In this document: positions 8,298 to 38,067 of the stretch, in pieces
Numbering within the stretch: position 1 is the stretch's first letter
Layout of the letters: every line of letters starts with the position of its first letter
Assembly (NCBI GenBank): GCA_043228905.1
Contig: JBHGNT010000001.1
Location: 11,656,001 to 11,720,000, forward strand
Length of the DNA stretch: 64,000 nt
Source of the DNA: Azolla caroliniana
Lineage: Eukaryota; Plantae; Polypodiophyta
Direction of reading: 5' to 3'
The notes under the pieces: generated by a model
The model's database searches: none
What the model was told of the DNA's origin: nothing
What the model saw: the letters and a program-made list of their open reading frames with translations, nothing else
Position numbers and translations under genes: made by a program

Positions 8298-8985
8298 ACT
8301 ATTTAGTCGATTGGCTAGGATATAGTCCGAGCGAGCGTACTTGGGAACCAATAGAGAATGTGATCAATGCTCGTGCTCTTCTTGTCTCCTCGAACCCTAT
8401 CAAGATAGCATTATCCCAAGTCGTATTAAACAACCTCCACCCCCGATCCAACTTGAAGATGGACCTGAGTACGAGATTGCCACCATCCTCGATTCCAAGA
8501 TAGTTCGCAACAAGCTCTACTATTTAGTCGATTGGCTAGGATATAGGCCCAACGAGCGTACTTGAGAACCAATAGAGAATGTGACCAATGCTCGTGCTCT
8601 TCTTGAAGACTTCCATCGTCAATATCCAAACAAACCGGGTCCTCAATCCAAAACAACTCGTGACACTCGTTGTTTTAAAGGGGAGATATTTTCATGATAA
8701 TATGATAAGACTCGAACCATGACCTTATGTTACACGGGTCGAGCTCTTAACCATTAGACTATATGTTGTAATACAAAGGATATTATTTTCATTTAAGTTT
8801 TACTATAGAAAATTGATGTATATTCCAGATTTCTCTAGAACATTCTAGAAACTTCAGGAGTACTCCTGAGAACACTATAAAAGGAGGCACAAGGTATTAT
8901 TTCAAACCAAATTGGTTCAACGTCAGTCTTAAGCCTCCTAGCTACTATTGTATATTCTCTTAACATAATATATCCTTTGTTATCG

Positions 8986-9041
<56 letters not shown>

Positions 9042-9157
9042 TCTCTCGAGAGTTCTACACCTCCCTTAGTACTAATCCTCATCTTTTAGTACTAGTTCCT
9101 TCTCTGTCTTAGTACTGTTCTTGAAAGTACTTCTTTTTCTTAGTATTGTTCCTGACA
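8298..9157 (+). mobile_element. 3' end of a chromovirus: chromodomain, PPT and 3' LTR (~8690-9157), inserted in a Copia protease region
   Basis: PPPIQLEDGPEYEIATILDSKIVRNKLYYLVDWLGY...ERT*EP...DFHRQYP. PPT AAAGGGGAGATA at about 8677-8688. LTR ends CCTGACA at 9157, has TATAAAA near 8876 and (CT)n at about 8991-9038. Confidence 0.85.
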
Positions 9158-10474
9158 TATGAAGTCGGGTCGGTCCGGTGTCCATAAGTCATGAAACCAC
9201 TATTGGTGTGATGTCATATGATGTGAGGCACCGGAATTGACGAACCACACGTCTTCCGAGTTGGAAGTGCTGGTGGAGTCAGAGGTCTTCATAGAGTTCG
9301 CTCTATGCCTCATTACGAATAGTCCATCGTAGTCATCGTATTCGGAGTTGGTGGCGTAATTCGTGAGTTGTCGACTTGTCTAAGCCGACTCGCTTCTTCT
9401 TTTTCGGCACTCCTCCTTGCGGTGACCAATTTTTTCGCAATAGTTGCTAGTTACGGGCCTCATTTCCCAACCTTGTTCGGCATGGAAGGTCCCCCTTCTT
9501 CCGAAGGTTCCTCGATGGCTTCTGTGAAGGTTTGAGTTCCCTTCGTGTGATGAACCAAATTGACCTCTTCTACTGTCGTGACCTCGTCCGTGGCCACCGT
9601 CTGAACTTGAGAAGAACATTTGTCCTTTTGACGTCTTTGTCTTGATTCAAATGTGGTTCTCTTCGACCAATAACATTGATTGGAGGTCGACGAACGAAGG
9701 GGGGTTTTCTCTCACCAAGATTGTCGTCTGTAATGGATCGAATCATTGTGTAAGGCCGCCCAAACATAATTGAACCATCTTGTTTTCATCGAGATTTATG
9801 TTGATGGAGCGAAGTGAGTCACAAATGCTCTTGATTTTGGTGGTGTAGTCCGGCATAGACATATCTTTTGGCCAAATGTTGTTCAACTCTTGTCGGAGTT
9901 GAAGCTTTCGGGTGGTCGTGTTGGTGGCGAACATCTTCTTCAAGTTCCGGCGTTTCTTGTCGGCGTTTCGAACACACAATTACGAATAAGCAGATGGGCT
10001 TAGTGGATGTGTTAAACCACACACTCTGATACCATGTTAATAATTATTAGGTAATTAACTACAGGTTAATTAGTACCTAATTATGTGATCAAGCTAAGCG
10101 GAAGATTATGTGATATGTGTGTGTATGTGTGTGAGAGGAAGAGAGAGAGGAAGTTACACTTATGAACAACACAAGATGGGGGATGATTAACTCTACATTA
10201 AATTAGCATCATCATCATCAAATACAAAAATACCCACAATGAGGTATATATACATCTCATGTGCAAAGGTGCACATGTGTGAGTAGAATATAGGTACTAA
10301 GGTGTAAGTCCTATATTAAATGTACTTAGGAGTGGAGGATCTAGAATATCCCACTTAAGCAAGGTCATATTTAAGGCGTTATAGTAAACACTCCTAACTA
10401 GATTCTATCTAGGTAACTACGAAGTTACATAGTTGACTAAATAGCTAAACTAAGTTGAGCTTGATCTCTCAACA
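9158..10474 (-). mobile_element. Decayed Copia 5' part: LTR 10035-10474, tRNA-iMet PBS, gag/CCHC/protease remnants
   Basis: LTR TG...CA. Minus-strand TGGTATCAGAG at 10034-10024. Gag-like RKLQLRQELNNI, knuckle remnant NYCEKIGHRKEEC, protease VWFVNSGASHHMT near 9200-9250. Confidence 0.85.
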
Positions 10475-10719
10475 TGGAATACAGATCTATTTTGCCTAAG
10501 TTTTTGTGTCTCTGATCTATGTTGAGTGTGTCTGTGTTGAGTCGTGTACTCTGTATGTGTTAAGTACGGAACGTGTCGATTGTAGCCGTCATCGTAATCT
10601 CCACAGTCTCCACAATCAAGATAACTATTACGATTCTAGTATACAGCCACCCGAGTTATGGGTACGACTTGAGCATCCTTCCCTAACCACGATTCCCTTG
10701 ACCCGAAGGTGTTCTTTAC

Positions 10720-12499
10720 CTCCATCAAATGGACGTAAAGAACACCTTCCTTCAAGGGGAATTAGAAGAGGTGTACATGGTACAACCACCCGACGTCAAA
10801 TTGAGCATCCATCCAAAAGCAGTCTACCGACTGAAGAAGCCACTCTACGGCCTTAAGGAAGGCCCCGGTGCTTGGCACTCGAAGATAACACAATATCTTC
10901 ATCGAATTGGCTTTCAAATGTCGAAATCCGACAACTCCCTCTACGTACAAAACGACTAGAAAAACCTGATCATCATCATCCTATATGTGGATGATCTAGT
11001 CATTGGAGGTGAAAGTCTAGTCGAAATCAACAAGGTCAAGTCCCTCCTCTCCAGCAAATTCGAGATGAAGGACATGAAGGAGCTCCATTACTTCCTCGGC
11101 ATCGAGGTAATTCGGACTCCAACCAACATTATGATCTCTCAACGGCACTACATCCTCAATTTGTTATATAAGTTTGGGATGACTGATTGAAAAGTTGTGG
11201 CAACCCCTCTCGATCGAAACCTCAAACTGGATGCCGGCTCTGGCACGAAAGAGTGTGAGCCGACTCAGTACCAACAACTAATCATGAGTCTCATCTACCT
11301 CACGATCACTCGGCCCGACCTCAGCTATCTTGTCGGTCTCCTTAGCGAATTCATGCAAACTCCACAAAATATTCACTTAGATTGTGCTAAGCGAGTGTTG
11401 CGATACATGAGCGGCACAATGGACTATGGCATTCTCTACAAAGCAGCAATGCCAATTCGACTCAAAGGGTACTCAGATGCCGACTAGACCGGCTACAAAG
11501 CCAACCGACGATCGACCTCCAGATTCATTTTCTCCCTCGGCAGCAGAGCAATTTCGTGGAGTAGCAAGAAGTAGTCGAATGTCGCCCTTTCAAGCATAGA
11601 GTCTGAGTACAGGGGCGCAGATGTGGTTGCATGTTAAGCCATATGGCTCAAGCAGATTTTGAAGGATCTGGGCGTTCCCATCAAGGATCCGACTCCCCTT
11701 TATGGTCACAGCATGAGCAATATTTATATGGCTGGGAACCCAGTGTTCCACGTGCACACGAAGCATATCGAAGTGCATTATCACTTCATTCGAGAGCGCA
11801 TTCAGGCAAGAGATGTCGACCTTCAACACATCAATACGAATCTTCTAACGGCCGACATCTTCACCAAAGCCCTAGGAGGCAACAAGCTTCGGCAATTCAT
11901 GTCAGACCTTGGATTGATGATCCCTGACTTGCCAAGCTTGAGGGGGAGTACAAGAGAGAACCGGATACCGTCCCAACCGGGTACCAACCGAAGCGGATAC
12001 CAGCCGAAGCGGACATCAATTAAAAGGAACCGACCCAAGTTGAGCTTGAGGGGGCATGTGGAGAATCAAGCTCAACCTACCCTTATGTGTGAACACACCC
12101 TTTGAGAATATATGAGCACTCAAAGGTCAAAAGTCACACCACTACTCTCTACACATTAACTATGTGTCATAGAAGCATATCCTATGACACATAGCTAATG
12201 AGTTTCATATTCCCCATGACTAATGAGTCTTCACATTCCCCAAGAGAGAGTGGTTGTTATAGTTAGCTAATGAAGAGAGAGGGTGACTATATATAAAGCA
12301 CCTCCTCCTACTTCATTAAGTGTCGGTTGTGACTCCTTGTAATGCTACATTTTGGTATCTCATATTCTCCTTGTGAATATACACCTTCTTGAGTATTCTA
12401 TCTTCCATTCTATCTAATCTATCTTGTGTTCTCTCCTCTCTTTCCTCTCACACATACACATCTCTTCCATTGCACAATAATCATATCCATTTCTTTACA
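10720..12499 (+). mobile_element. Decayed Copia 3' part: RT and RNase H remnants, PPT, 3' LTR 12057-12499
   Basis: QMDVKNTFLQG, LKKPLYGLK, YVDDLV, TRPDLSY, YSDAD, TKHIEVHYHF, ADIFTKAL with many stops. PPT TTGAGGGGGCA before TGTGGAG. LTR ends CTTTACA and resembles the LTRs at 10035 and 34731. Confidence 0.88.
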
Positions 12500-12929
12500 A
12501 TCACAAATGTAGTTAATGTATTGTGAAATGCACATAAGAGATCAAAACCAGCCTACTTAGCTTCTTACTTCTTGCTCAATTTATAGTTGATACAAAGGTA
12601 CCCATTTGGGTTGGCTTAGCTAAAAAGGGTGTGCTAAAAGGGTGGCACAAAGGAACACATGCACACCACATTTCCCCTGAGAGAAACAAGAGACTAAGGA
12701 ACATGAACATGAACAGGGGCAATGGTTTGTTGAAGGAGGGGGAGCATCTATTGGAGATAGAGCTCCCAAGTGGCACTATCCATGTTGGCAGGTTTCGAAT
12801 GGACATCAATGGACGATTCTAGTGGGAAGCGAGGGTTACGCCCATAGAGTGCTCGAAAAGGGTTTATCAGTGTCGACGCCTGTACGGATGTATTGTGGGC
12901 ATGGGTGACGAAATGCAAGATTTGATCCC

Positions 12930-13949
12930 AGATTTTGTTGCATGATTTTCATTTTCTATCTACATTTCGCTCCACTTTCTTTTGACAATGATCGATTTCG
13001 ATTGCTCACCTTCTAGTTCCAATGGGGGTCACACCCGCTCACTTTCTTGGTGGGGATTGCGTCGGCTTCTCGCTAGTGCTACTGTTTGTGCCGTGTTTTG
13101 GGTCAACCTTGACTATTTACCCTCTCATGATAGAAGAAGTCGAGTTGACCGCTTCACCAAAACTCCTTCCCCATTGTTGTTCCAGATCTTGGTGAGGACT
13201 CCACATGGTCACTCAAGTTCCAATTTCCGGTGAGAGCCGCACATGGTCGCTCACGCTCATTCGTGTTCCAGTTCTTGGTGAGAACCGCACATGGTCGCTC
13301 GCTCTCGTTCGTGTTCCAGTTCCCAGTGAGGACCACATGGTCGCTCATGCCCGTTCGTGTTCCCAATGAGGACCGCACATGGTCGCTCATGTCCATTGGT
13401 GTTCGTGTCTCTGGTGAGGAAAACACATGGTTTCGCACGCCCGTCAGTTCTCCACTTCTCGCTCACCCTTACACAACACTTTCGTAAAGGTGGTCGTAAA
13501 AGGGAGGATAATGTCACGACACAGTGACATAAAATACATAGTTAGTGAGGATTGAACCTACAACCTCACATCAACAAGATGGCATGCTCAACCATTTTGA
13601 TATGAGCATGTATTTGTATATAATGGTTTAGTATTGTATAGTCTAGCATATAATACATTTCAGAATCAGAATATTCTAGTCGTTAGTATATTCTAGAGAT
13701 ATTTCTCGAGTATATTCTAGAGATATTCAATCTCAGAACTTGTATAAATACTTGTAACCTCCTTGGTCCTTTTCAAGGGATTCAATGTCAGTCATTGACA
13801 CATCAATCTAGTATTCTCATTCCATTCCATCCTATCTCCTTCTTCATCTATGTCTTCATGCTCTTGTGTCATTCCTAGCTTCTTAAGTTCCACCTCGTAG
13901 CCCCATTATCCGTGCTTTGTCCGAGTCCACAGTTGGTGTGTTTGTGACA
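12930..13949 (+). mobile_element. Truncated non-autonomous chromovirus-derived LTR element (internal tandem array, PPT, 3' LTR 13512-13949)
   Basis: Internal sequence is homologous to about 36580-37560. PPT AAAAGGGAGGATAA. LTR TGTCACG...GTGACA shares TATAAATACTTGTAACCTC with the 35864 element. No 5' LTR seen. Confidence 0.85.
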
Positions 13950-14790
13950 CTTGCTAGGGAGGATACTTCTTACTACTACTTTGCCCAATAATGTTTTGCT
14001 CTAAGTTTTCAAATCAATGAGTGGAAGTCCTCCCTCTTTCTTGCATCGTGTTATTTTCTTCCATGCAATGGTTGCCTTTACCATCTAATTTCTTGCCCAT
14101 AGAAATTTGTAAATATTAGATTATACTAGTTATACCTTTCCTGTCAAAGATCCAACATGAGAGTGTATGCCACATGGTTGCAAGCAATATTTGATTTGCT
14201 ATTGCCTACTAGTGAGAACTAGGCAAAATTCCAGTATTTCAATTTGTTTCTTATTGAGTGTTGCAACTCCTAAGAATCTTAATTCGAATCCAGAAACGTA
14301 AGTATCTAGTTGTAACATTTTCTTGTAGCCAGCAAAACGAAGGGTTTGGGCACCACTCTGGTTTCTTGCCTCCAATCCACCAACCTTTGGACTTGTGCCA
14401 ATTTATCTTGGCCTTTGAAACTCTACAGAAACTGTTAAATAGATTTTTCACATCTGCAAAGGTTTTCTTGCATCCCATTGACAAAAACATTGTATCATCA
14501 GCGAAGGTTGATTTAAAAATCAATTCTTTATCATGCTATGGAATCTGCATGCCTTTAATCCGTGGCTCAATAGCTCGTAAACTTGCTAAAAGATACTGTA
14601 CATATCAAATGAATAGGTACGGGGCAAGTGGGCATCCTTGCCTTACCGAACGTGTTATTTCGAAACTTCTCCCATATTTCTTGCAATTAGTACATAGCTT
14701 CTTGCATATCTTACAACACCCACACCCCTCAGATCCACCTATCTGGGAATTCCATTGTTTTCAATATTTTATCTAGAAACAACCAATTGA
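13950..14790 (-). mobile_element. L1-type LINE RT fragment (second, diverged copy)
   Basis: Minus strand gives RQGCPLAPYLF (near 14615-14650), STFADDT, AKINWHKS, TRYL and GGLPLIDL. Confidence 0.8.
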
Positions 14791-17700
14791 CCTTGATTTT
14801 ACAATTCATCATTATAAAGCTAGACTTTTTTCTTTTCTTTTCCAAAAAGAATATACTCCATTAGTTAAAATATACACAACTCTGATCCCTTTCTCGTGTA
14901 GTCCTTGCCTAAACTATCCTATCATTCATGAGTGATCTCACTTATTTATCTTACACTTTCGCATGTGTCTCTAGCCAACCTTTCATGTAACACATCACGT
15001 GCATTCAATATCTCACATGACATCTCGTTCATGCCCCTCTTTCAACTAATAGGAGGGGTGAACAACCATCTGGGTACTACATACTGCCATCGTATATCCA
15101 TTCCATTTGTTGAGGCCATCGGTATAGTACACCAACATTCTCTGAAATTCGGCCTCATTAATTCTGAAGCATCATCAATACCATCAATCCACTCATATTG
15201 AGCTCTTAGTGTAGTTATTAGTGTGTGCCATATTAGCTTAATCGATTCAAATGGAGGGCGTTTGTTTGCTGAAAATACCCTAGTACACCTTGTTGTCCAT
15301 ATGCGCCATATGGTAATGTGTGCAAGCAGTGTCCATAGATCTCCAAATTTTTGCTCCCGCACAATAACTGCAGGTACCCTATTGTCAGTTATCAGCCAAA
15401 TAGTTCCATTCTCCCCTCTATACATAGCTTTACATGTGCTATCGTATTTCGCCACATCATCCTCAAGACAGTTCCAACAAGCATGTCCCCACTTGAGGGT
15501 GAACGAACTAGAGACATGGCAAAGCAAACATAATGCCCTTCCCCCATACAGTCGTTGCCTCGCGGCATTCCCATAGACAATGGGAAATGTTTTCTAAATG
15601 TCCACATGCAGTACATCTAGGGTCTACATTGGGCCTTTACCCCACGTCCCTACTGGCAAGGCTCTATGCGCAATAAGCCATAAACACATCATTATCTTGC
15701 GGTCATTACTGTCATGCCATATCATTTTCCAGAATTTATCTAGTCTCCTTTTCCTAATGCCCTCTTGTATCCAAAATTTATATGTTGCAATCTTGTCATG
15801 TTCTTGTTCTAGAATAATTTGCCTCCCAATTTTCGTGTTATACCTGAAAAATTGAACTAGCTTTGCCCCCTCAATTCATCCTTGAGTTCTCCAGAAATAC
15901 ATCGATGGGTCCCATGATAATTGATCTGAATGCCCCTCTATTGGCCAACACACTGTCGTCGATGTGATCTCCCTTGGCTTAGGTTCAATACTCATATCCT
16001 TTCCATTTTTTGCAATCAACCTAATCGGTCATTTGCTTTGATATGTTGGTTGCTCACCCCTTGCCATTCCTAGCTCTATTTTGTAGTAGTATGCCTCATT
16101 CGATTCTGCTTTCATTCCCTTAATTCCAATTAAACAATTCTCAACATGTATAAGACTTCCTGTCTGTGCAATTTCAGAGGTAATTATATCTTCATCTTCC
16201 AAGGTATGCTTGTTGCATGCAATGGCATCTGTAATTCTCTTGAGCATGCCTTTACCCCTGCTTATTCTCCATATTCTAGCCTTTTGAGTGCCCACATCAT
16301 TGGACAAAAATCTCTACAACTCCACTAATGCATTCCCTTGGGCATTGATTAAGTCAGCCCATTTGAAGCCTGCTTTTTGTCCTATCATCAACCATCCATA
16401 TCTCTAATCAGTGGGTTCCACACAATTGGCATGTACATCCGGGCATATGCATCATTTCTCCACCTACATGTGATCCCCTTTCTGATTTCTTGCCATGCTT
16501 TCATAATTCCAATAGCACATAGACTCTGCATACTTCCCCAATATTTGGGTCGCATTTCTAGCACAAAACCCCAAAAAGGTTGCTTGGACAACTTCCGCCT
16601 TGTCTCGGCAACCACATCTTCCATCTACGTCTCCATAGAATATTCTAAGGTGCATCAGGTGGTTGTAAGATCCTGACCACCAGTTTTCCTAGCAAGACCT
16701 TCGTTTGCACCATGAGATCTATCAATCCCACCCCGGCTTCACTTTTTCCTTTTATAAGCGTGGTCGAAGCAACCTTTGCACGAGCTTGTTTTTCCTCTGC
16801 GCCCCTCCTTAAGAAATTTTTGATAATCCTTTTTATCAATTTCATCGACTTGGGCATGATTATCTAGCATGCAGCAATATGCCATATAGTGGCCATTAGA
16901 ATCTAATTTGCAATCACAATCTTGCTCCTAAAGGATAGTTTTCTTGCATTCCACCATATTTGCTTCGCTTTTATTTTGTCCACTAGTAGATTGTAGTGTT
17001 CTACTCGATCGATGTCCATACCAATTTTGAAGCCCAAATATCTATTAGCTTCTCCTCTCCTCAACCATTTGAAATTGGGGTCAGGGGCCCAATTTAAATG
17101 GGCTTATTACTAATCCAAAGGCCCACTTATTTATTCCAATTTATTTTAGCATCTAATCCCCTACAAAACTCATCAATTTCACTTTGCAATCTGCCAAGTT
17201 GTTTGCATCACCCTTGACATAGGTCGTTGTGTCATCAGCATATGTTGTATCAAGCACCATTCCTACATCATAGGCAAGGTAAGGCCTTATATTTGCCAAG
17301 ATCTATCAGCAATTTGATAATGCAAAGCTTCTGATGCAATGATGTATAGGTATGAGGCCAATGGGCATCCTTGGCATACCGAACGTAGCATCTAAAAGTT
17401 CTTCCCCATACTTCCAGCCATTAAAACCTGGTTGGATGCACTTCTGTAAAAGACACTCGTTCCAAGGATCCATTGGTGTTCAAAGCCTAGGGTTGCCATC
17501 ACTACTTCTAGGAATTCCCATGAGATCCTGTCATATTCTTTTTCGAAGTCGAGTAGCATTACTACTAGGTCCACTTCTTGCTCCTCCACCCATGCTGAGT
17601 ATTCCCAGAAAGTTATCACATTGTCAACAATGCTCCGGTTTTCCAAGAAGCCAGTAGTTTGCATTGTATGTATAATATCCCCTAATATCGTTTTCAATCT

Positions 17701-19522: not shown

Positions 19523-19869
19523 TGTCACGGATAGATCATAAGCTCAAGAGACAAGAAAGAAGATAGACAAATGGATTAGTATTAACGGAAAGACTCCATA
19601 ACTGGTGTTGTGCATCTTGAATTCCTTCAAGGTGAACTCCTCTATTTATACTACATGGCATGCATACTTGTTGCACGCGTGTGAATCTACAATAGAGCAT
19701 GTAGGTATGCATGCATCTGCCAAGTGTAAATACTACAAGGGAGCAACTATGCACATGATGCTAGCAAAACAATAAGGACCAATTACATACATAACTGTGT
19801 ACTAGATATATTGGTTAACCCATGATACTATATTATAACATGGTCGTGTCAAGAGTTCGAATCTTGACA
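19523..19869 (-). repeat. 3' LTR of the chromovirus
   Basis: Direct repeat of 24470-24819 with TGTCA...TGACA termini. Confidence 0.95.
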
Positions 19870-22800
19870 TTATTCCCCCTCCGACGCCGCCTTCCCAAAT
19901 CGGCCGCTGGTTTGTGGGGATATCGGTGATGAAAATCTTGGACGACCTTTGGGGCATTTTTTAAATTTTCCGATGGTTCCCACGTGGCCTCAGACATGGG
20001 GTAACCCCTCCATAGGACAAGGTATTGCAAGTGTCGACGGTGCCAACGCAAGTCAAGGATTTGGTCAACCTCGTATTCCTCCCCTGTCGTCAATTGCACA
20101 GGTGGTGGTGGAGGGGCCTGACGTCCTGGGAGTTGTGAAGCATAATGGGGTTCGAGGAGGGAGACATGAAAAACATCATGAATCCGGAAGTGGGATGGAA
20201 GGGCGAGCCGGAAGGCGATGGGATTGATGCACTCGATGATACGGAATGGTCCCAACTTCTTGTAATCAAGTTTCGCACATGGACGAGTAGTAGAGATGTG
20301 TCAACGTAACAACCAGACCATGTCTCCAACGAAAAAGTGTGGAGTGGCAGATTGATGGCGATCAGCCTATTACTTGTATCGTTCACTAGCAAGACTAAGC
20401 TCCAAGGATAAATCATGATGTAGTTCTTCCAAAATGCGAGCACGATCCTCCGCCGAAGGGTTCACGGAAGTGGTAGGAAGGGAAATGTTGAAGCGAGGAT
20501 GTAAACCATAGTTGGCAAAGAAGGGAGTGACGCCAGTCGATGCATGGAGAGAATTATTGTAGGCGAATTCCGCGAGCGAAAGTAAGTTGACCCAATCATC
20601 TTGTTGGTAACTAACAGAGCACCGAAGATACTGCTCAAGGATTTGGTTGACACGCTCCGTTTGCCCGTCAGTTTGGGGGTGATAAGCGGATGACAACTTG
20701 ACAGAGATGCCTAAAGTTTGTAGTAGGCGCTGCCAGAAGTGAGAGACAAACTGGGGTCCGCAATCGGAGATGACATCATTGGGGAGTCCATGCAAGCGTA
20801 CCACATTGTTGAGTAGTAGATGCACCATTCCTTCTCCGGAAATGGTTTTGGAGCATGGAGTGAAGTGAGCCATCTTCGTAAACCGATCGACAATGACCAA
20901 CACCGAGTCATAGCTATTGACCAAGGGTAGGTCAGTTATCAGGTCCATAGAGATAGAGGCCCAAGGATGACGAGGACATGGAAGCGGTTGTAGTAAGCCG
21001 TATGGCCGATGATGAATGGCTTTGGAGCGAGCACAAACCTCATAACTCTTTATGTATTCTTTGACCAACTTCCATGGTTGTGGCCACCAATACCCCCGAG
21101 AGAGTAGCTCGAGGGTTTTCACGACCCCGAAATGACCTGCAAGTGGGTCATCGTGGCATTCCCGCAACACCCGGGTGCAACATGGGCCCTCTGGGACGTA
21201 TAAGAGATGATCTCGGAACAACAAACCCTCTTGTATGGTGAAGGTGTCAAGATCCTTCCTTTTGGTCGCCTTGGAGGGGTTTTGCAAACTATCTCGAATC
21301 TCGTTGGCGAACGTATCGGTCTTGGACGCATCAGTGATCTGTTGGAGTAATGAATCATCCTGCAACATACAAGTGGCAAAAAGATGCAATTGGTCGGGTT
21401 TGAACAAACGTCTAGATTGTTGAGCATAAGCAGCATCCCCAGGGCAGAGTGCACGGTCGGCTTGGCGAGAAAGTGCATCGGCCTTCCCATGTTGGTCACC
21501 AAGTTGAAATACGATCTCAAAATCGTAGTCGGCGAGAAATGTCGACCAACAGGCCTGCCTTCGATTCAAAGTACGAGTGGTGGAAAAATAAACTAAATTT
21601 TTATGATTAGTCACTACCTAGACACGATGTTGTGCGCCGGCCAAGTAGGGTCGCCATTCTTCAAAGGCAACAATGATAGCAGCAAGCTCCTTGTCGTATA
21701 TGGGATAATTGATTTCGGATGCCGTGAATTTCCGGGAGTAGTAAGCCACTGGGTGCATTAGGTTGGTGTCGTCTGCCTAGGATAAGATGGCACCAATGGC
21801 GAAGTCAAAGGCATCGGTGTCGACTTGGAAGGGTTTTGTGGGGTCGGCATGTAGCAGCACTGGGGCAGTGATGAATGCGTGTTTGAGAGAGTCGAACGCA
21901 TTTTGCGCCTCCGAGGTCCATAAAAATGGATTGCCTTTACGGGTGAGAGTGATAAGAGGTTGTGCTAGGGTGGAAAACCCCTTGATGAAGCGACAGTAAA
22001 AATTCGCGAAGCCGAGGAAGGATTGCACATCTTTAAGTCGCCTTGGAGTCGCCCACACCTGAATGACAGAGACCTTCTTCATATCCATGGTGATGCCAGT
22101 GGGTGAGATGATGTAGCCCAGAAATTCAATCGAGGTACAGTCGAACTCGTATTTCTCGCCTTTGGCATAAAGGCCATGCTCGCGAAGTTTGGCAAGAACT
22201 AATCAGACTTGGCGAGTGTGCTCCTCCATGTTTGGCGAGAAAATGAGAATATCATCGAGGTAAATGACAACAAAATGATCAAGATATTCCCGGAATATAT
22301 CGTTCATCATATGTTGAAAAACTGTTGGAGCGTTAGTAAGACCAAAAGGCATTACCTTGTATTCGAAATGCCTATACCGTGTTCGAAATGCGGTTTTCCA
22401 TTCATCCCCCGGCTTGATGCGTACTAGATTGTACGCTCCACGCAGATCAACTTTGGAGAAGACACGCGCAACTCAAAGCCGATCAAGGAGTTCGGGGATC
22501 AGAGGTAGCGGATAGCGGTTGCGCACAATGAGTTTGTTGAGACCTCGGTAGTCGACGCATAAGCGTAGAGAGCCGTCCTTCTTCTTCACAAATAAAATGG
22601 GGGGCCCGGCTAATGACTTAGAAGGTTGAATAAATCCTTTCTCGAGGTTCTCATCGAGATACACACGAAGGGCCTTCAACTCTGGTGCAAACAATGCATA
22701 TAGAGGACCAAAGGGTGGACACGCACCTTCTTGAAGATCAATCGGATAGTCGTAGAGCCGGTGTTTAGGCAAACGATCAGCATTACATTTTTCAAATACG

Positions 22801-24469
22801 TCGGAGAAGTGTTGGTATTTGTCGGGAATAACATGGAGTGTGTTAGAAACGACGCCACAAACAAACCCATCCTGGACCGATGATGGGGTAGTCAAATCGG
22901 AATCGACCTTCTCCGAAGGATGGGAAACTGAATTTACCTTCATACTTTTGCACGAGCATCCTGGCTTGCTAAATGTGATCGAGCAGTTGCACCAATCCAC
23001 TATTGGATTGTGCGCCTCCAACCATGTTAGTCCTAAGACGATCGGATGACGAGGAGATGCGAAGAGGTAAAAGGCGAGCTCCTCCTGGTGTGAGCCCACA
23101 CAAAGCCCTAATGGGATTGTAGCTTGAGTAATTGCACCTGACAAGAGGACGCACCCGTCGATGGCTTCAACGGGAATGGTTTTTGAGAGGCCAATGACAG
23201 GTACGCCATGTGCTTGGGCAAACACGATGTCGATGAAGCAAGAAGATGCCCCAGAATCAAGTAAAGCAACAGACTGAATGGAACTAGTGTTAAATGAAAG
23301 CCATACCTCCAATGTGAAATTGCCTGATGGTCCGGCAATGGAACCAAGAGAATGTGGGCGAGGGGAGATGTCTAGTTGCATGGCTCCTACTGCAACCGAA
23401 CGATGTCGTTTTCTGGATGGTGGGGTCCGTTAGCTCGATGGAATTGTGGGCGATTACTCCTAGGACAATGGCGAACGACATGACCGGAGGCGCCACAATA
23501 CATGCACAAGCCATTAGCCCGCCGAAATTGTCGTTCGGCATCAGTCAATGGCCAAAATCAGGCTTGATCAATTTCCATGGGGACAGGAGCATCTGCCAAA
23601 GTAGGGGAGTGTGACGCAGTTGATGGGGGGGTATGGTTGGGGTTGTATGACCGGGGTGTGTCGTGGAAGTGAAGGAGGTGGAACCCAAGTACGGCGCTCT
23701 TCCTGGCGAAATTCAAATAGACGATTGTCACAATGGACTGCTTGTGAAATCGCTTGGGATAACGAGGTAGGCTCCGGAAAGTTTAAGAGAAGATTCTTGA
23801 CATTGCTTCGAAGGCCACGCCAAAAGTGATCAACTAAAGCTTGATCATCCCAATTGACGTCACATGCTAGTTGTCGAAATTCTGAAGCATAGACCGAAGT
23901 TGCACGCGAACCTTGTTCAAGTGCATAAATCTTGTTAAGAGTTGTACGTCGTCGGTCCGTCTCTCCAAATGTGGCCTCTAACTCGGCGAGGAAGGCGGGA
24001 AAGTCCTCCAATAGAGGTGAAGAGGTTTCTACCAATGGTGCAAACCAAGCTTGGGTCGGACCGGAGAGAAGGGTACTCATAAGGCCGACTTGTCGAAGAC
24101 CATCTCCATAGCGTTAAGGTTGTAGCCGAATGATAAGTTGAACTTGGTTGATGAACCCTCGGAAACGTGACCTCGTTCCATCAAATTTTTCTGGGAGGCT
24201 AACCTTAGGCTCAAGAAAATGTGACGAAGTTAGGCTAGATGTTGGTAGAAGATCGGGCTCTAGGCTAGGTTGTTGTGGGAGACTAGGCTTCGGGGGTTGT
24301 GAGGATAGGGAGGCACCGACTTGAAGTTCTTGTAAAGAATTTCGAAGAGCTTCATTTTTAAGCTGGAGTTGTCGTAAGGCTACCATTATTTGGCCTAACT
24401 CACTAGTTGAGTCAGACATAGCTATGGCTTATGAGAGGGAGAGCTATGAGGATGGGAAGGTGAACAAAC

Positions 24470-24819
24470 TGTCACGGATAGATCATAAGCTCAAGAGACA
24501 AGAAAGAATATAGACAAATGGATGAGTAGTATGAACGGAAAGACTCCATAACTGGTGTTGTGCACCTTGAATTCCTTCAAGGTGAACTCCTCTATTTATA
24601 CTACATGGCATGCATACTTGTTGCACGCATGTGAATCTACAATAGAGCATGTAGGTATGCATGCATGTGCCAAGTGTAAATACTACAAGGGAGCAACTAT
24701 GCACATGATGCTAGCAAAACAATAAGGACCAATTACATACATAACTGTGTACTAGATATATTGGTTAACCCATGATACTATATTATAACATGGTCGTGTC
24801 AAGAGTTCGAAACTTGACA
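24470..24819 (-). repeat. 5' LTR of the chromovirus
   Basis: TGTCA...TGACA termini, TATAAATA on the minus strand at 24600-24593, gag ATG at 24419. Confidence 0.95.
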
Positions 24820-27429: not shown

Positions 27430-27850
27430 CAATGCTTGTAAACAAATGTTAATAAAGAAATGGCATGTGACTTTGAGATTAAATCTCTTGGAGAATTATG
27501 GTATTTTCTTGGTTTGGAAGTTGTGGAATGCCCTAATGGTCGTATGTTATGTCAGAAAAAATATGTAATGGATGATTTGAAAGCATTTGGTATACATGAT
27601 TGTAAAGTCATTAAAATACCAATGGAAAAAAATGCAAATCTTGGAGGAAAAAAGGAAAATCATTATGTTTGTGAAAAGGTAATTGCAGGGGTTATAGATT
27701 TAAAGTATGTATATCAAACATAACCCCTGCAATTACCTTTTCACAAACATAATGATTAATATTTCACTAAGGCCCTTCCAACATATGAATTATTCAAATT
27801 TTGAAAAAAGCAAGACTTAATTATATAAATATATGTTGAAGTGGAGAAGT
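27430..27850 (+). pseudogene. Highly decayed Copia RT/RNase H remnant with an internal deletion
   Basis: FEIKSLGELWYFLGLEV...CQKKYV joined to HYVCEKV..G.IDLKYV and IFTKAL. Purine tract near 27838-27849. Confidence 0.75.
27658..27757. repeat. Perfect 38-bp inverted repeat with a 24-nt spacer
   Basis: AATCATTATGTTTGTGAAAAGGTAATTGCAGGGGTTAT at 27658-27695 and its exact reverse complement at 27720-27757. Confidence 0.95.
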
Positions 27851-29328: not shown

Positions 29329-31179
29329 TCAGCTCTCCTGACATGCATTTTTTTGGCGCATACGTGAGGCCCACGAGTCATTTCTCCGTTCCTTCATGAA
29401 GCTCCGAAGCTTAAGCTCAGAGAGTTGGATCTCCCAATGTGACCTCCAATCGGAAGGCTGTGCCTCCTGAGTAACACAAGAGAATAAAGGAACCATTCAA
29501 AAATTATGATGGGACCCAGACACTCAATTCTTTCTACAAAGTAAGCTCTTTTTTTTTTTTAAGAAGGAGAGTCCTCCTCACATTATTTCTATTAGGAGAA
29601 AGAAACTATACAATACTAGGATGGACTGGATCGACCCCATTTAACTAAATGTCAACACATTATTTTGATTACAAAGTTTTAATAGTCTCCCATGGCTTGG
29701 CTTGCTTGACACCTTATTTCTAATTCGAAAAGTTGTAAGGCACCCCGAAAGGATCGGACTCCTTATCTGCACTCCAAATAAGAGTGCTTTCATATGGTCG
29801 CGGTTCTTTGAACACATAGCCTTGCTCGTACCTAAGCATATAAAAATTGACCACCATGTTCCCTAAATTTTTACTAGCTTCCCAAAATAACCCTAAACCC
29901 ACTTTCGGACACTATGTGTAGCTACCCATGGTTAACCAAACCTCTTATCTCTAATTCTATGTGCTAAACCATGGTTAACATTTAGAATAGCATCATAAGC
30001 TAACTATGGTTAGTCCAACCAAGTAACCTTCACACCTATGTACTGTCACTGGTTAACTCAACCACTTTGACCTTCAAACTCTATGTGTAGTTAACCATGG
30101 TTAACCTTGACCTCATGTGCTAACCATAGTGACTGAACCTTCAACATCTATGTCCTAGGCATAGTAAAACCCAACCATTGAACCTTCAATCTATGTGCTT
30201 GGCATGGTAAAACCCAACCACTTAACCGTAATCTCTATGCGCTAACCGTGGATAACATTCGAATGGCACATGACCTAACTAGTAACCATGGTGAAACCAA
30301 TTACTTATAATAACGCTCTATGAGCTAATCATGGTTAACCCCACAATTAACACCAACTCTATGTGGAGCCAAGTAATTTTCAAGCTCGACATCTAGCCAA
30401 CCATGGTTAAATGAAACCCATTAACCTTTGATCTCTTATTTGTAGCTAACCATGGTTAAAGAAAGAACCCGAATTAACCTTTGATCTCTTATGTGTAGCA
30501 AACCATGGTTAGACTCCAACCACCTAAACCTAAATATAACCTCTATTAGAAGAAGCTAACCATGGATAACCAGAAACTAAACCTTAACCATTAGAGTCTG
30601 ACAGAAAACCGATCAATAGGAGGAGAAGGAAAAGAAGTAAAGGAATGGTACCTTATATATCTTTCCTGTGGCTCTGCCCATACTCGTGGCATGATCGTAG
30701 ATAGCTCTTCTTCTTGGGTCAGAGAGGGTTTCATAAGCCTCTTGTATTTCAATAAACCTTCGGGTGGACTCCTCTGTTAGATGAGAGGAGCAGACATCTG
30801 GATGATATCTGAGAGCAAGCTGCCTGTATGCTTGCTTTATATCAGAAAGACCCACATGGGGCGGGATCTCTAGCAGGTCATAGAGTGTTGAGGAGGGGGA
30901 GGATCGAGCACACACCAATCTCATGGATTGGTCCTCCTTCTTCGTCTTCGTCTTCGTCTTCTTCCAAGGGGAGGTGTTGGTATGTGCAGAGTGAAAGAGC
31001 TTCGTATCAGAAGGAGAAGAAAAGGAGGAGGAGAAGGAGGAGAAGGGGATAGCGTGTGGGAGAGAGGAGGACATCAGAGAAGAAGAAGAAGAAGAAGAAG
31101 AAGAGGAGGAGGGGGAAGGTTGAGAGCTCTTTGTTTGGATCACTTTGGTATTAAATATGTATGTAAAGGCTAAAGCCAT
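29329..31179 (-). CDS. Chloroplast DnaJ (type C J-protein), J20/DJC26-like, 221 aa; exons 31179-30652 and 29466-29329
   Basis: Ser-rich transit peptide. J-domain LYDLLEI...IKQAYRQLALRYHPD...YETLSDP. Phase-0 GT-AG intron. Exon 2 gives WRSHWEIQLSELKLRS...SWASRMR, which resembles the C-terminus of plant J20. Confidence 0.92.
29911..30590. repeat. Degenerate intronic minisatellite with palindromic core TAACCATGGTTA (~15 cores)
   Basis: CTATGTG(T/C)..TAACCATGGTTAACC variants recur every ~30-75 bp within the DnaJ intron. Confidence 0.8.
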
Positions 31180-34100
31180 TCCTCGCTAGAACTCAATTCA
31201 CTCACTCTGACTCACCTTTACCTCACCGAGTCAAAAAGCATCTTCTGGAGAAAACAAAAGGAAGACCTCCTATTGAGGCTCAGGCTCTCGGTTTAGGCTC
31301 AGGCTCTCGGCTCAGGATTTCAGCGGCTTGATCTGATTTTTACGCTCTGGCATGCTACTATTGCCATAATGCACCCCTTTTTTTTAACCCATCAAACCAT
31401 TCACCCAACATTGTATAAACACCCGGCTTTCCGAATTCGGGCGTTACCTAGATAGAGCAACCAAACTCTCGATGCACATTCTCTAGGTATGGTTAAGAAA
31501 AGATTATTGCCCTCGCAACATATACATGGCATAGAGCGATCGTTTTGCATGAAAAGAACGTCGAGCCGCATGAGTTTTTAGCTCGCGGAAAAATAGGAGG
31601 TAGTGTGTATTTCACTGCGAAACAATGTGAGAATCCGCCATTCCAAATAGTCTTTATTGCATCCAATTTTCAAATAAGTTATAGGTTCTATTCGCACGTA
31701 ATGGTTGAACAACTTTGAAAGTATGCCTCATGCATGCTACTGTAATGAATGAAGAGACAAATATTTGTTCAATATGATTACTCCAAACAAAAACCATTTT
31801 GTGCCCAAAGCATTGACATTTTCCGTAGCCATTTGTAACTTCCAATTCCTTCAATGGCAAGTAAATATTTTGTGGTGGAAACTTCTAAGAAACTTGACAC
31901 CTTTTTAGTCATGCTCATCAACACAATATATACTAGAGATAGGTCATTAGGGGTTCTAAGTCAGGGTGATGCTTTTGTTTTCTTAATGTAATATATCATT
32001 AGTAACTACCAAAAGGTGTTTTGTCATTGTTATTATTACCATTTAGCATGAGCCTTCAATGTTTCTAGAGAATAACACATTCGATGAGGTGTGTTTTTCA
32101 ACATCTTGACACTTGTTGAAGCCATTTCTGTTTATGGATATTATGTTTTGTTTAATAAAACTTCCAAAATGGAAGGTTAAACAAGAGAAAAAAAACTTTG
32201 TGGCGGAAAGGGTTACATAATCCAACTCGAGAGGCCATATATTTATGTTTTCATGGAGTGTCTCATTTTTGTCAACATTGTTATCTGTCTTTGCTCTACT
32301 CAACGAGAAAGCTAAATCGAAATGAAAGGGGGGAAAAATCTTAGTAGATGGTATTGCGTGTGTTTAAGCCTTATCGTTCTCGTTATTCTTAACCACTAAC
32401 TCTCATAGCATTGTCCCACATAAAAATCCACCTTTTTTAAGAATTGTCAATCCACACATCCATCTAGTTCATGCATCTTATATGGTCCATCTTGTTGATC
32501 CCTTACACTATTTCCACAATAATTAGTTTGGTACGCATCGTGATCTTTTATTTTTTGTGGTGTCAAGAAAATTATATTATGAATTATTATTTGATACCCT
32601 ACATATACAAATGGACCATAAGGCAATATGAATCCTCGTTAATTTTGAAAGGAATGTGAGTTGCATTGGAAGTCAAAGCAAAGAAATATCATAAAAGAGT
32701 TGCACAATAAGGAGGCCTAACTTATTTTCGTAAAGATAAACCCAATTCTTTTGTGTGGTAACCTTCTCAAGGGCTACATATGGACATTCGAATATGACAA
32801 AAGACGTTCTCATATGGGTTTCTTTTGTGTGTGTAGTTATGGAGAAGGATATGAGCAATATACTTCAACATTCCACATCTCTGATTACGACAAATTTATG
32901 GGTACATATATCTACAAATGTTTATTTTTGCTTGCATGTATGGATATCACATCAATTGATGGATAGGCCATTTTCTATTTTCCTTCTTAATATCAATATG
33001 ATGATTTTGAAATATTTTCCGACCTCATTGATTCCCTTTTGTACAAAAATGAGTCATCTCTTCTACAAAGGAAATAGGAGGGAACAATGCACCTCTCGAG
33101 TCTCTCCCCTCTTCATTTCTTCCAAGATTTGCATGATTACTTTAGTAGTTCAATACTAAGAAAGTTTACCACAAAAGTTTGTCCTTAGACTTGAGTCTTG
33201 ATTAACAATAACTACCATACATACCAATTTACCTTTTGGGAAAGTTTCACAAAAACCATCCAAATTTTGAAGCTCACCAAAGCAATGGCATTAAGACGTG
33301 CATAATGATTATGGAGCCAAAAGGAAATGCTTGTTCACCTTTGGACCATTCGAATGCTAATAGGCCCCAATCAAGCTTTAATGACCCTAATCATCCTTGT
33401 AATCAATTGCTATTAGTAAGTATGGACATATATAATCAACCAACAATCATCATGACAATCAAGTAGAAATCCCCACTATTTGAATCCCCTTCACCCAAAT
33501 TCAATGCGATTATAATCTACCACATATCCAACAAAAAGAAAAAGCATAAACATCTCAATAATTTGTCATTTTATGTTGAATCATATTATTATTTTTCCCA
33601 TGTCACAATAATATATGAGTCATGTTTGTTTGTTTTCTTCTATGTACTTATGTACATTTATTAGAAAAAGCTATCTTTCTTATGCTCTCTCTAGCTAATT
33701 ACTTGGGAACTTATATTGCTACTCATCATAGAGGTACTTTATTCAACGAGATTGGTTGCATGAGTTTTTTGGTGGCATGGCACAAATAATGATGGTAAAA
33801 GTAGTTTAAACTAATTTGCCTTTTTCTTTGAAGAATTTGAAATAGTTTTCATTTTTGGAAGCTTTTATGATTTTTCGAGTATATGATTTGAGCCAACATT
33901 GTCCTATTTTTTTATCAATTGTTGCATATTTTTGTTGTTCTTTTGGAAAAAACAAACAATTGAACATGAAAAAAAGTTAAAAGACGGGAGAAGCTTTGAA
34001 AAATAAACATCCCCCTCGATTCTTCATCATTGGTAAATCTCAAAGGCGTAAGCAATAGAGACATTTTGTCAAGCAATCACGATCTGCAAACATTTACATT

Positions 34101-35863
34101 TGCATGCACTATGAAGAAGAGACTCAAAAAGTTCTTGAGTCCCCACAAGTGTGAAATGGAACAAAAACTAATGCAATCAAATTTTAAATAAATATAAACC
34201 CAATAACTTGGCTTCTCTTAGAGGATCACTCACTCTGTCTGGCTTTTCGTAATTAGCTTACCCTAATGGCAAGCTATTAGACTACTAATCGTAGTCTCAA
34301 TTACTACATATATATTCTATTAATTTACTAAATGCCACTATGGAATGCAGTGGTTGAACATATGACCTTCTTGTTTCTTTATTGTCTCCATCAAGCAAAA
34401 TTACCAACGAAGCTACATCCATCTAGTCTCTCTCTCTCTCTAACCAATTGAAATCATGGCCATGGAAAGGGGTCGTCAAATACATGCTTAAGGTTCGAAA
34501 AAAGTTCCTCAACTCAACTTCCTAGAGTCGCATGGGAAGCAAACTAAAAGATCCAAAATACACTAGAACATAAAATTTTGCGTTCTAGAGTCATAATGTG
34601 GCATGTTCAAAGGTAGAAAACAGGGGAAAAGGGGATAGTCACAAAGTTTGAATATGTACATACCAAAAAAATACCTAATGGTTGTTGCCATTGCAGAATT
34701 TGAATCTTCACCATCACAATTATAAAGGAATCTTGAGAATCAAACTCAACTTCCCTAGGGTGGGAACACACCTTAGGAATAACCAAATGTGTGAACATCC
34801 CACCACTTTGTATCATAACTAACGTGTCATAAAGTTAAGTCCTATGACACATAGTTACGAGGTAGTTAAGTCTACACCTCCTTCCCAATAGGTGGTTGTA
34901 GTGAGAGAACATAGAGAGAAGGTGACTACATAAGCACCTTCTCCACTTGTTGTTGTTGGTTGTTTATTCTATTGTTAATGTAACAAATTTATTGTTTTCT
35001 GTATACGTTGTGTTTTATTTCTCTCTCTCTCTCACACACACACATCTCTTCCGCTGCACAAGATCACACCCAATTCTTTACATGGTATCAAAGCGATTGG
35101 TAACTTGATCCAAGCCCGCCTGCGCGTGTTGTGCTTACGCTGATGTTCACGAAGAACCGACTTATCGTTGTAGCAACAACCCTGCACAATTCGTATCACA
35201 AAGAAGAAAAAATCACAAGTTGACCACCATGAACACTCAGATTGACAACTCTCTCCCCAATGAAAAGCGGGACAAAAACAACTTCATATATTGGAAATAC
35301 AAGATGCACCAATACCTTGTCAACCAAGGTTATTGGAGTTATATCGAGGGAGCACAAGAAACGCAAGTCAACCCAACACACGCCGACTACCCAGCATGGG
35401 AGCAAGTGTCAAGCCATGTGTTGTATTACCTTGCATCATGTGTTCATTATCACATGTTCGACTACATTCGAGAGGCCAAAACGCCAAAGGAGGCGTGGGG
35501 GAACCTCAAAAAGATATTTGTGGCCAACACAACTGTATGAAAACTTCAACTTTGTTAGAGTTGAACAATATCCAACCGAGGGATATGTCAATCGACCGCT
35601 ACACCTTGAAGATCAAGGATTTGTGCGACTCCCTCGGGTAAATCAATGTCAACATTGATGACGATGAAATGGTGCAAATATGCCTCAGTGGCATAGCACC
35701 ACGGTTCGGCTACGCAATAAGGTCGTCATCCTCACAAGGAGAAATCGTCCTTCCTTCTTTGATCTCCAGTCGATGCTACTGGTCGAAGAAAATCATGTCC
35801 GAATAAGGAGCAATGCCCAAGAAGGTCACATGCCCTATTCGAACTCGGATGGAAGAAGGGGAC

Positions 35864-38067
35864 TACCACAAGAGACATGACAACAATTATGTCAAGATTC
35901 AAACTCTTGACCTCTTGTATTATAGTCAAGTGTTATATAGTAACCACACATTCAAGTACATGGTTGTGCTATGTATATTTTCGTAGATTATCTATTCACA
36001 TTCTAGGAGTTTTTAGAAAGTTCTAGAACTAGAAGGTTCAAGAGGGTTCTAGAATATTCTCCAAAATATTATAATCCATGTACTTCAACTCACAGTATAA
36101 ATACTTGTAACCTCCTCGGTCCCTTTCAAGGGATTCAACACCAGTCATTGACACATCAATCTAGTATTCTCACTTCGCCTCATCTTTGTCTCCTTGACCT
36201 CTATTTTTGTCTTCATGCTCTCATGTCGCTCACAACATCTAGAGTTCCTAGCCTTGTCACATCTAGCTCCAAGTTCATCCGTCACTCGTAGCCCCATCAT
36301 ATGTGCTCCGTCCTTGTTTGCGCTTGGTGTGTCTGTGCCAATTCGAATCCCTTCCAACTGGAAGCATCACCCGTATTCGTCATCACCCTTGATTCTAGAG
36401 TTACCATCATCACCGTCCTTACTTCCAGAGTTACCGTCATCAACATCCTTGTCTTTGACATCATCATTTTCAGCACATCTTCGCCCAACCTTCATCGTCA
36501 TCAACATTACTTCACATGATCTTTCATTATCATCATTGTTCCGCTCTCCTCATTATCATTGTTATCATTTATAGGTATCATTTTGCATCATGATTTTGGT
36601 GAGGATTGCTTTCAATCGCTCACCTTCACAGTTTCGTTGGGGGTTACAACCGCTCACTCTCCTGGTGGGGATCAAATCATTGCTCACTTGCACTCCATTT
36701 TCATTTTAGTTAAGTTTCACACTACTTCCTGTTGGCGAGGACCGATTTTGATCGCTCACTTTCTCGTTTCAGTGGGGGTCACAATCGCTCACTTTCTTGG
36801 TGGGGATCGCTTTGGTTTCTCGCTAGCACTACCGTTTCTACCGTGTTTTGGGTCAACGTCGACTATTTACCCTCTCATAATAGAAGAAGTCAAGTTGACC
36901 GCTTCACGCACTCCTTCACCCATTTGTGTTCTAGTTCTCGATGAGGACCGCATGATCGCTCACATCGTTCGTGTTCCAGTTCCCGATGAGGACCGCATGG
37001 TCGCTCATGCCCGTTCGTGTTCCAGTTCCCAGTGAGGGCCGCATGGTCACTCACTCCCATTTGTGTTGTAGTTTTCGGTGAGGACCGCATGGTCGCTCAT
37101 GCCTATTCGTGTTCCAGTTCCCAGTGAGGGCCGCATGGTCACTCACTCCCATTTGTGTTCTAGATTTCGGTGAGGACCACATGGTCGCTCACTCCCTTTC
37201 GTGTTCCAGTTCTCGGTGAGGAACACATGGTCGCTCGCGCTCATTCATGTTTCCGATGAGGACCGCACATGGTCACTCATGTTCCGATTCCCAATGAGGG
37301 CCACACATGGTTGCTCACACCCGCTCGTGTTCAAGTTCTCAGTGAGAACCGCATGGTCGCTCACTCTCGTTCGTGTTTCTGTTTTCGGTGAGGACCACAT
37401 GGTCACTCACTATTGTTCGTGTTCCAGTTCCCTCACTCTCGTTCATGTTCCAGTTCCTGGTGAGGACCGCATGGTCACTCACGCCCTTTCATGTTCCTGA
37501 TGAGGACCACACATGGTTTCTCATGCCCACCACTTCTTGTTCACCCCTACACCATGCTTTCGAAAAGGCGCCCGTAAAGGGGAGGATAATGTCACAAGAG
37601 ACATGACAACAACTATGTCAAGGTTCAAACTCTTGAACTCTTGTATTATAGTCAAGTGTTATATTGTAACCAACACATTCAAGTACATGGTTGTGCTATG
37701 TATATCTTTGTAGATTATCTATTCACATTCTAGGAGTTTTTAGAAAGTTCTAGAACTAGAAGGTTCAAGAGGGTTCTAGAATATTCTCCAAAATATTCTA
37801 ATCCATGTACTTCAACTCACAGTATAAATACTTGTAACCTTCTTGGTCCCTTTCAAGGGATTCAACACCAGTCATTGACACATCAATCTAGTATTCTTGC
37901 TTCGCCTCATCTTTGTCTCCTTGACCTCTATTTTTGTCTTCATGCTCTCATGTCGCTCACAACATCTAGAGTTCCTAGCCTTGTCACATCTAGCTCCAAG
38001 TTCATCCGTCACTCGTAGCCCCATCATTTGTGCTCCGTCCTAGTCCACACTTGGTGTGTCCGTGACA
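35864..38067 (+). mobile_element. Complete non-autonomous chromovirus-type LTR element (2.2 kb, no gag/pol)
   Basis: LTRs 35864-36340 and 37590-38067 (~478 bp). TSD GGGAC (35859-35863, 38068-38072). PPT AAAGGGGAGGATAA. Non-coding interior with a tandem array. Confidence 0.93.
36940..37525 (+). repeat. Internal tandem array, ~40-46-bp unit (core GAGGACCGCATGGTCGCTCA), ~13 copies
   Basis: Cores at about 36943, 36988, 37034, 37080, 37126, 37172, 37217, 37257, 37296, 37344, 37390, 37462 and 37502. About 6 copies in the paralog at 13190-13440. Confidence 0.9.

Follow-up and report, generated by a model that had tools for sequence, protein, structure and literature searches.

Pol III (RNA polymerase III) promoters have been described within long terminal repeats (LTRs) from several retroelements; what we say of published systems, here and below, refers to the accessible text of the cited papers. 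The closest known analogue of the feature considered here, not named in the first-pass annotation of this locus, is Helenus (TRIMp3; Kojima 2024, PMC10886601). Its LTRs, like those described below, contain tRNA-derived sequence that is conserved chiefly around boxes A and B and has no functional tRNA fold, and it too is from one plant family (Selaginella). Cassandra TRIMs (terminal-repeat retrotransposons in miniature) also have an internal Pol III promoter in plant LTRs, ferns included (PMC10886601, 10.1101/2023.07.14.548913, PMC12786077). In type 2 Pol III promoters, an A-box (TRGYNNARNNG) and a B-box (GGTTCRANYCY) lie 30-60 nt apart (PMC12498455). Here we consider a 64-kb stretch of the genome of the fern Azolla caroliniana (contig JBHGNT010000001.1, positions 11,656,001 to 11,720,000; hereafter the window), in which the LTRs of Tcn1-type chromoviruses carry an antisense pair of tRNA-like A- and B-boxes, hereafter the cassette, near the 5' edge of U3. 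The feature is real, recurs in other families, and looks like an outward-facing type 2 Pol III promoter in autonomous-type LTRs.

The window holds six Tcn1-type LTRs from four elements, and a scan by shared R motif, polypurine tract (PPT) junctions and LTR similarity detected no further Tcn1-type LTR in it. Motifs were scored against the patterns TRGYNNANNGG (A-box) and RGTTCRANNC (B-box). Elements, LTRs and boxes are as follows.

8690..9157, plus strand: 3' LTR, preceded by a chromodomain remnant and PPT, that belongs to a truncated Tcn1-type element; a Copia gag then follows
8751..8761, minus strand: A-box of LTR 8690, 0 mismatches
8709..8718, minus strand: B-box of LTR 8690, 0 mismatches; offset 43
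13512..13949, plus strand: 3' LTR of a 5'-truncated element, with R/U5 and internal region akin to the 35864 element
13592..13602, minus strand: A-box of LTR 13512, 1 mismatch
13549..13558, minus strand: B-box of LTR 13512, 0 mismatches; offset 44; a run of four T (T4) comes next, still within the LTR
19523..24819, minus strand: full-length Tcn1-type chromovirus of 5.3 kb with gag, protease (PR), reverse transcriptase (RT), RNase H (RH), integrase (IN) and chromodomain; 5-bp target-site duplication (TSD)
19803..19814, plus strand: A-box of the 3' LTR of the 19523 element, 2 mismatches
19854..19863, plus strand: B-box of the 3' LTR of the 19523 element, 0 mismatches; inside an 8-bp terminal hairpin; offset 51
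24753..24764, plus strand: A-box of the 5' LTR of the 19523 element, 2 mismatches
24804..24813, plus strand: B-box of the 5' LTR of the 19523 element, 0 mismatches
35864..38067, plus strand: non-autonomous element of 2.2 kb; LTRs 35864-36340 and 37590-38067, 96% identical; 5-bp TSD
35944..35955, minus strand: weak A-box of the 5' LTR of the 35864 element, 2 mismatches
35896..35905, minus strand: B-box of the 5' LTR of the 35864 element, T where the conserved C is expected
37670..37682, minus strand: weak A-box of the 3' LTR of the 35864 element
37622..37631, minus strand: B-box of the 3' LTR of the 35864 element, same C-to-T change as in the 5' LTR

The first-pass annotation had claimed an antisense cassette in every chromovirus-type LTR of the window, and this holds for six of six LTRs in all four elements. 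The eight motif positions it gave are exact, and the motifs of the 35864/37590 pair, the weakest cassette among the six LTRs, lie at 35955/35905 and 37682/37631. The B-box end lies 6-37 nt within the LTR, not on its first base. The U3 ends of 19523 and 35864 can be aligned (70% over 88 nt), so the window LTRs are not all independent.

The signal of the motif pair is its place and strand, not its count. Strict A+B sites number five in the window and 4.0 in 12 dinucleotide shuffles and are thus not over-represented; four of the five are antisense and ≤50 nt from an LTR 5' end. The equal count would suit chance matches aided by a terminal inverted repeat, as would the overlap of the 19523/24470 B-box with the hairpin at the LTR terminus. 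That explanation is largely refuted by the families outside the window, by strand specificity and by agreement at variable-loop positions that were never searched for (all below), and we consider it very improbable. As to shuffled sequence and Copia LTRs, proposed earlier as a check on chance frequency, the shuffles match the window count, and the cassette was not seen in five Copia LTR ends (scores of 4, 6, 7, none and none, with the boundaries of two approximate).

The sample from outside the window comprised 80 metagenome loci, out of 554 confirmed ones, and 18 loci of genome collections, chosen by SH3-chromodomain alignment. The start of an LTR could be called in 57 of the 98 loci, 55 of them with sequence enough for scoring. 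Nine LTRs come from one contig series of a European Nucleotide Archive (ENA) metagenome, a group that was set apart post hoc, after the initial results, and that includes close relatives of the window elements (L030 matches the 19523 element at 84% identity, and L003 the 35864 LTR at 74%). By inspection, seven of the nine have both boxes, one (L030) has the B-box only and one (L001) has neither, and no A+B site occurs on the sense strand of any of them. An antisense score of 3 or better was reached by 6 of the 9 series LTRs versus 1 of 46 other chromovirus LTRs (Fisher P 2e-5); as the A-box of L030 stems from an inserted Copia LTR, five of the nine are valid at that cut-off. Boxes and spacing of the cassette are those of a type 2 promoter, with the pattern perfect in LTR 8690 and L012 and weak in 35864/37590 and L017. 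The tRNA-type character proposed in the first pass is thereby upheld, and the cassette recurs, on contigs outside the window, in families beyond those then seen.

How much of a tRNA is left? With the B-box alone as anchor, six outside families (leaving out L001, which has no B-box, and L003 and L030, which belong to the window U3 families) have in total 7 A-box mismatches at offset 43-44 versus 23.5 ± 2.6 when shuffled, and 0 of 5000 shuffles were as good. The offset of 43-44 is tRNA spacing; in one subgroup it is ~50. Across 10 families, 28 of 30 cells match at three variable-loop positions that no search pattern contained (-8 A, -6 G, -5 T); shuffles give a mean of 8.5 and a maximum of 19 (20000 shuffles), and other LTRs match in 36 of 123 cells. 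We take these positions to be tRNA 44, 46 and 47 and to line up with AGGTC, the tRNA variable loop. Mean pairwise identity among the eight families at offset 43-44 is 0.42 for the A-box, 0.69 for the variable loop and 0.69 for the B-box (the anchor), and 0.31-0.32 for the flanks and 0.28, the random level, for the spacer. Between families, the boxes are better kept than neighbouring U3, in partial support of the first-pass inference that a common place and strand suggest selection.

RNA structure behaves differently from the promoter letters. The Rfam tRNA model has no match on the cassettes, even when given a 201-nt stretch, and no fold is common to them (z from -3.2 to +1.3), which together place the constraint on DNA. 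Stems are partial (T-stem 1-4 of 5 pairs, anticodon stem 1-4 of 5 pairs), and the cloverleaf of a tRNA gene, with acceptor, D, anticodon and T stems, is absent. Promoter letters are kept and RNA structure is lost, a pattern that points to a tRNA-derived promoter preserved as DNA. A plant-type upstream CAA, checked by eye, is not consistently present at a fixed place.

The same data bear on a passenger origin, in which pieces of tRNAs or tRNA-derived short interspersed nuclear elements (tRNA-SINEs) were copied into U3 once or repeatedly, perhaps by mis-priming, and decay without a role. Mis-priming would leave tRNA sequence antisense, as at a PBS (primer-binding site), and capture of different tRNAs would likewise yield common boxes whose spacers differ. 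The B-box has often decayed (in read depth at 37627, and in L013 and L030), and successful families either lack the cassette (L001) or have a weakened one (L017). A lone A/B-like unit at 27947-27887 on the minus strand, with the variable-loop letters, a perfect B-box and an offset of 51, lies outside any recognised LTR and is possibly a decayed SINE or tRNA pseudogene. However, with the stems lost and no Rfam tRNA found, the A-box, the variable loop and the B-box still keep their register, and the cassette has the same place and strand in two separate clades. In addition, the B-box CpG is kept in 5 of 10 families and replaced by a consensus-compatible CpA in 3, while other CpGs in these U3s are depleted. 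We hold a passenger origin to be unlikely.

The two clades come from a fast IQ-TREE analysis of 65 of 100 rows (22 rows were thinned from large clades, and the others were too short), with support from the Shimodaira-Hasegawa-like approximate likelihood ratio test (SH-aLRT) only. Cassette-bearing elements fall into group A (W19523, L030, L002, L003 and L020; SH-aLRT 97.4) and group B (W8690, L012, L013, L017 and L036; SH-aLRT 98.8), and group A is nearer to L001 and a cassette-free clade of other hosts (100) than to group B. This topology fits U3-end exchange among families within one host lineage; the alternative is an ancestral cassette with later losses.

U3 is indeed modular. The cassettes of 19523 and 35864 align, yet these elements differ in enhancer-like arrays and R/U5, whereas 13512 and 35864 have R/U5 and internal sequence in common but not the cassette. 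The cassette persists where enhancer and R/U5 modules vary between families. A Pol II module of enhancer-like arrays and TATA lies ~115-155 nt inward of it, and includes the following feature.

8838..8855, plus strand: three overlapping TTCnnGAA/GAAnnTTC units, upstream of a TATA box at 8876

Similar arrays precede the TATA at 36016-36059, at 13669 and in L013. We take these units to be heat-shock-element-like, and the arrays suggest that the LTRs may be heat-inducible. In LTRs 19523/24470 and in L001, L002, L017 and L036, they are replaced by CATGCA repeats, which are presumably RY-like. Summed depth over R is ~10-100 times that over the 37590-family U3 end and, while such depth is not a copy number, the difference suggests an abundant element group with diverse U3. 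Contig ends that are loose at 37599-37616 suggest that some LTR variants begin at the B-box hairpin and others with ~26 extra bases, and hence that the 5' end of the LTR moved in the course of the 37590 family.

If the promoter works, it may serve as a Pol III gene for a short antisense RNA, spanning the U3 end and often the PPT and integrase 3' end, with a regulatory role towards the element, for instance as a self-limiting antisense or small interfering RNA (siRNA) trigger. Both boxes are preserved at tRNA spacing, and foamy viruses produce Pol III RNAs from U3 (PMC3993851). The cassette body is free of T4 in 10 of 10 families versus 5.4 expected from base shuffles, and the figure for upstream U3 is 5 of 10. 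However, this gap is weaker with dinucleotide shuffles (P 0.016-0.12), and other LTRs are T4-poor too (4 of 46 versus 11.4). The first T4+ runs lie where the first pass had put them (8653, 19957 and 37566), and an antisense RNA would cross the PPT in three of the four 3' LTRs, the T4 of 13512 being inside the LTR. Its 3' end is not conserved, with the first T4 22-142 nt past the B-box start or none within reach, and its spacer is at random identity. Scattered first T4 runs, and folds without anything in common, make a defined antisense RNA look less likely, and we doubt the regulatory reading. Contigs of a run guessed to be RNA include two that match R/U5 only, and those of another run none, in data that show neither strand nor level. 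An antisense RNA acting as primer was rejected on geometry: for the plus strand its polarity is wrong, and for the minus strand it would skip the 3' LTR.

So, what might the cassette do? The reading we favour, plausible if short of probable, is that the antisense A/B pair at the U3 edge is kept by selection as a putative TFIIIC/TFIIIB site and forms a chromatin boundary that would shield the Pol II promoter of the element itself. The chromodomain would steer new copies into heterochromatin. TFIIIC on the 5' LTR, between flank and enhancer, would slow silencing and also block read-in transcription, and copies shielded in this way would leave more offspring. The cassette may originate from a tRNA gene or tRNA-SINE and may have spread between families via exchange of the U3 5' module, with selection working on transposing master copies. 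Its position between the host flank and the enhancer-TATA module of the 5' LTR suits a boundary, and retention of the A-box argues for full TFIIIC-TFIIIB assembly over a B-box-only site. To our knowledge, there is little direct evidence for TFIIIC barriers in plants. In yeast, tRNA genes as well as TFIIIC sites act as barriers and as roadblocks to Pol II (PMC12409998, PMC4228148), and extra TFIIIC (ETC) sites have a B-box only, unlike the cassette with its A-box (PMC12409998). The MAGGY group I chromodomain targets heterochromatin marked by histone H3 lysine 9 methylation (PMC3350952), and the 19523 chromodomain, read by eye, has aromatic residues at the cage positions.

Several observations weigh against a selected boundary. 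L001, a high-cover contig sister to group A, does without the cassette, as do two related Tcn1 clades from other hosts, and L017, also a high-cover contig, has two B-box mismatches. L001 also matches all three variable-loop letters without a B-box, which means that chance can produce this pattern where U3 is rich in CATG. At 37627, in three DNA runs, the canonical B-box C accounts for 65-70% of depth and the decayed base for about 30-35%. Decay is to be expected in most copies, but both LTRs of the 35864 element carry the decayed base, so the element probably transposed with it; in yeast, C56G lowers TFIIIC binding 370-fold, in a study that does not cover C56T (PMC11811891). Variable places within the family, for 37627-37679 only and biased to reference-like copies, number 2 of 5 in the B-box, 8 of 38 in the spacer and 2 of 10 in the A-box, which points neither way. 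Finally, Pol III machinery assembled in the 3' LTR could get in the way of a full-length transcript of the element itself.

A wider form of the boundary reading, which we put forward more tentatively still, is that heterochromatin-targeting retrotransposons of the fern lineage carry a portable tRNA-gene insulator that is swapped between families and keeps the 5' LTR active in silent chromatin. If true, a portable insulator would be a recurrent chromovirus strategy that scatters many TFIIIC sites through the host genome.

The genomic setting bears on one further account, namely that the cassette, rather than forming a barrier, manages integration or transcription traffic: it would offer Pol III-targeting elements a landing pad or a decoy, tether the end of the cDNA to TFIIIC, or tune 3' read-through as a roadblock to Pol II. 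Ty3, DGLT-A, Skipper-2 and TRE5 target tRNA genes (PMC5006619), and tRNA genes (tDNAs) stop Pol II read-through (PMC4228148). In the distant chromovirus L076, an antisense tRNA-like A/B unit (3037-3097) lies in the 3' untranslated region, ~160-220 nt ahead of the PPT, where it cannot shield a 5' LTR. However, an insertion upstream of the A-box occurs in none of the six window LTRs, and the sole nested insertion seen, a Copia-like solo LTR at L030 661-1099, falls between the boxes inside the cassette, ~16 nt upstream of the B-box. The four cassette elements sit in or next to Copia and long interspersed nuclear element (LINE) remnants (19523..24819 is nested within a LINE remnant, and 35864..38067 is inserted into a Copia gag-pol), and ARAGORN finds no tRNA gene in the 64 kb. 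We regard the traffic account as quite unlikely.

Assignment of the window elements to the Tcn1/Tf1-sushi group rests on gag-PR-RT-RH-IN with a C-terminal chromodomain in the 19523 element and on self-priming PBSs in place of tRNA PBSs, self-priming being a mark of these elements (PMC6317226). A complement of 9-12 nt lies ~30 nt past the TATA in all five elements tested, two of them as follows.

24457..24467, minus strand: self-priming PBS of the 19523 element, 11 nt complementary (1 mismatch) to the LTR ~30 nt past the TATA
36345..36353, plus strand: self-priming PBS of the 35864 element, perfectly complementary over 9 nt to the LTR 32 nt past the TATA

The reading frame of the 19523..24819 element is broken by stops, and its LTRs (3' LTR 19523-19869, 5' LTR 24470-24819) are 97-98% identical. 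Named integrase matches come from Closterium, fungi and Anolis. The 35864..38067 element carries 46-bp internal repeats, and 46-bp tandem repeats at 36920-37530 and 13170-13460 take up the 3' part of the internal region in the non-autonomous family. Elsewhere in the window, a near-perfect, MITE-like (miniature inverted-repeat transposable element) inverted repeat of 94 bp at 27661-27754 adjoins a Copia RT remnant, and the best named relatives of a DnaJ gene are from Adiantum and Ceratopteris.

In the wider sample, L009, L011 and L040 have an antisense B-box-like word in U3 repeats, without the conserved A and without the variable-loop letters; these words are probably unrelated to the cassette. 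Eighteen contigs of prokaryote genome records (L082-L099) match the chromovirus integrase-chromodomain and are probably eukaryotic contamination; two low-GC relatives (L094 and L097) had too little LTR and stand outside the comparison. Three scans of viral contigs gave, in turn, no match, one weak match and four pattern matches; of those four, the one inspected (L100) is a tRNA cluster and not an LTR.

How, then, does the cassette compare with the described systems? It is neither a tRNA gene nor a TRIMp3 element. Members of TRIMp3 (Helenus, Cassandra and Ajax) are short and non-autonomous with a tRNA PBS, whereas here a 5.3-kb coding element and a 2.2-kb derivative are both self-priming, and the promoter, antisense in all cases, is not placed to transcribe the element. 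Helenus in particular comprises non-autonomous TRIMs of 311-1263 bp with a tRNA PBS, in contrast to the full-length, self-priming chromoviruses of this locus. The Helenus promoter is proposed to make template RNA, which would imply a sense orientation (the words 'antisense' and 'opposite' are absent from the accessible text of PMC10886601), while the cassette is antisense, at the U3 edge and beside an intact Pol II TATA. The same paper expects autonomous elements not to have Helenus-type LTR sequence, yet the cassette occurs in autonomous-type LTRs. Cassandra is transcribed from a 5S-derived type 1 promoter that stands in for the Pol II promoter; the promoter considered here is tRNA-type, faces outward and stands alongside Pol II signals.

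The elements resemble the Tcn1 clade in domain order with chromodomain, self-priming PBS, 5-bp TSD and protein relatives in fungi and non-seed plants (PMC2864245, PMC6317226, PMC3350952). However, no Pol III promoter is mentioned for that clade, with 'polymerase III' occurring 0 times in the accessible text of PMC2864245 and PMC6317226, and Neumann et al. place it in mosses and club-mosses, in contrast to the fern lineage here. The full-text literature searched, whose coverage leaves out most subscription papers and Repbase entries, gave no description of chromovirus LTRs with a Pol III promoter in antisense. Type 2 promoters in autonomous retroelements are known from the Pol III microRNA (miRNA) cassettes of foamy viruses, in U3 (PMC3993851), and from the Pol III miRNAs of bovine leukaemia virus (BLV; PMC12498455). 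Those produce defined hairpin RNAs and have terminators, whereas the cassette has no conserved hairpin or 3' end. It resembles yeast tDNA barriers and ETC sites in that boxes of the TFIIIC-binding kind are proposed to make the boundary or roadblock (PMC12409998, PMC4228148); those are fixed host loci with demonstrated activity, and the cassette is mobile and its activity putative. If TFIIIC binds it, a plant genome would gain many mobile sites for this factor. The cassette offers a concrete, mutable cis-element for how chromoviruses stay expressible once their chromodomain puts them in heterochromatin, and with it Pol III promoters in LTRs would be known from autonomous elements as well as non-autonomous TRIMs, facing the other way there and next to a promoter for Pol II.

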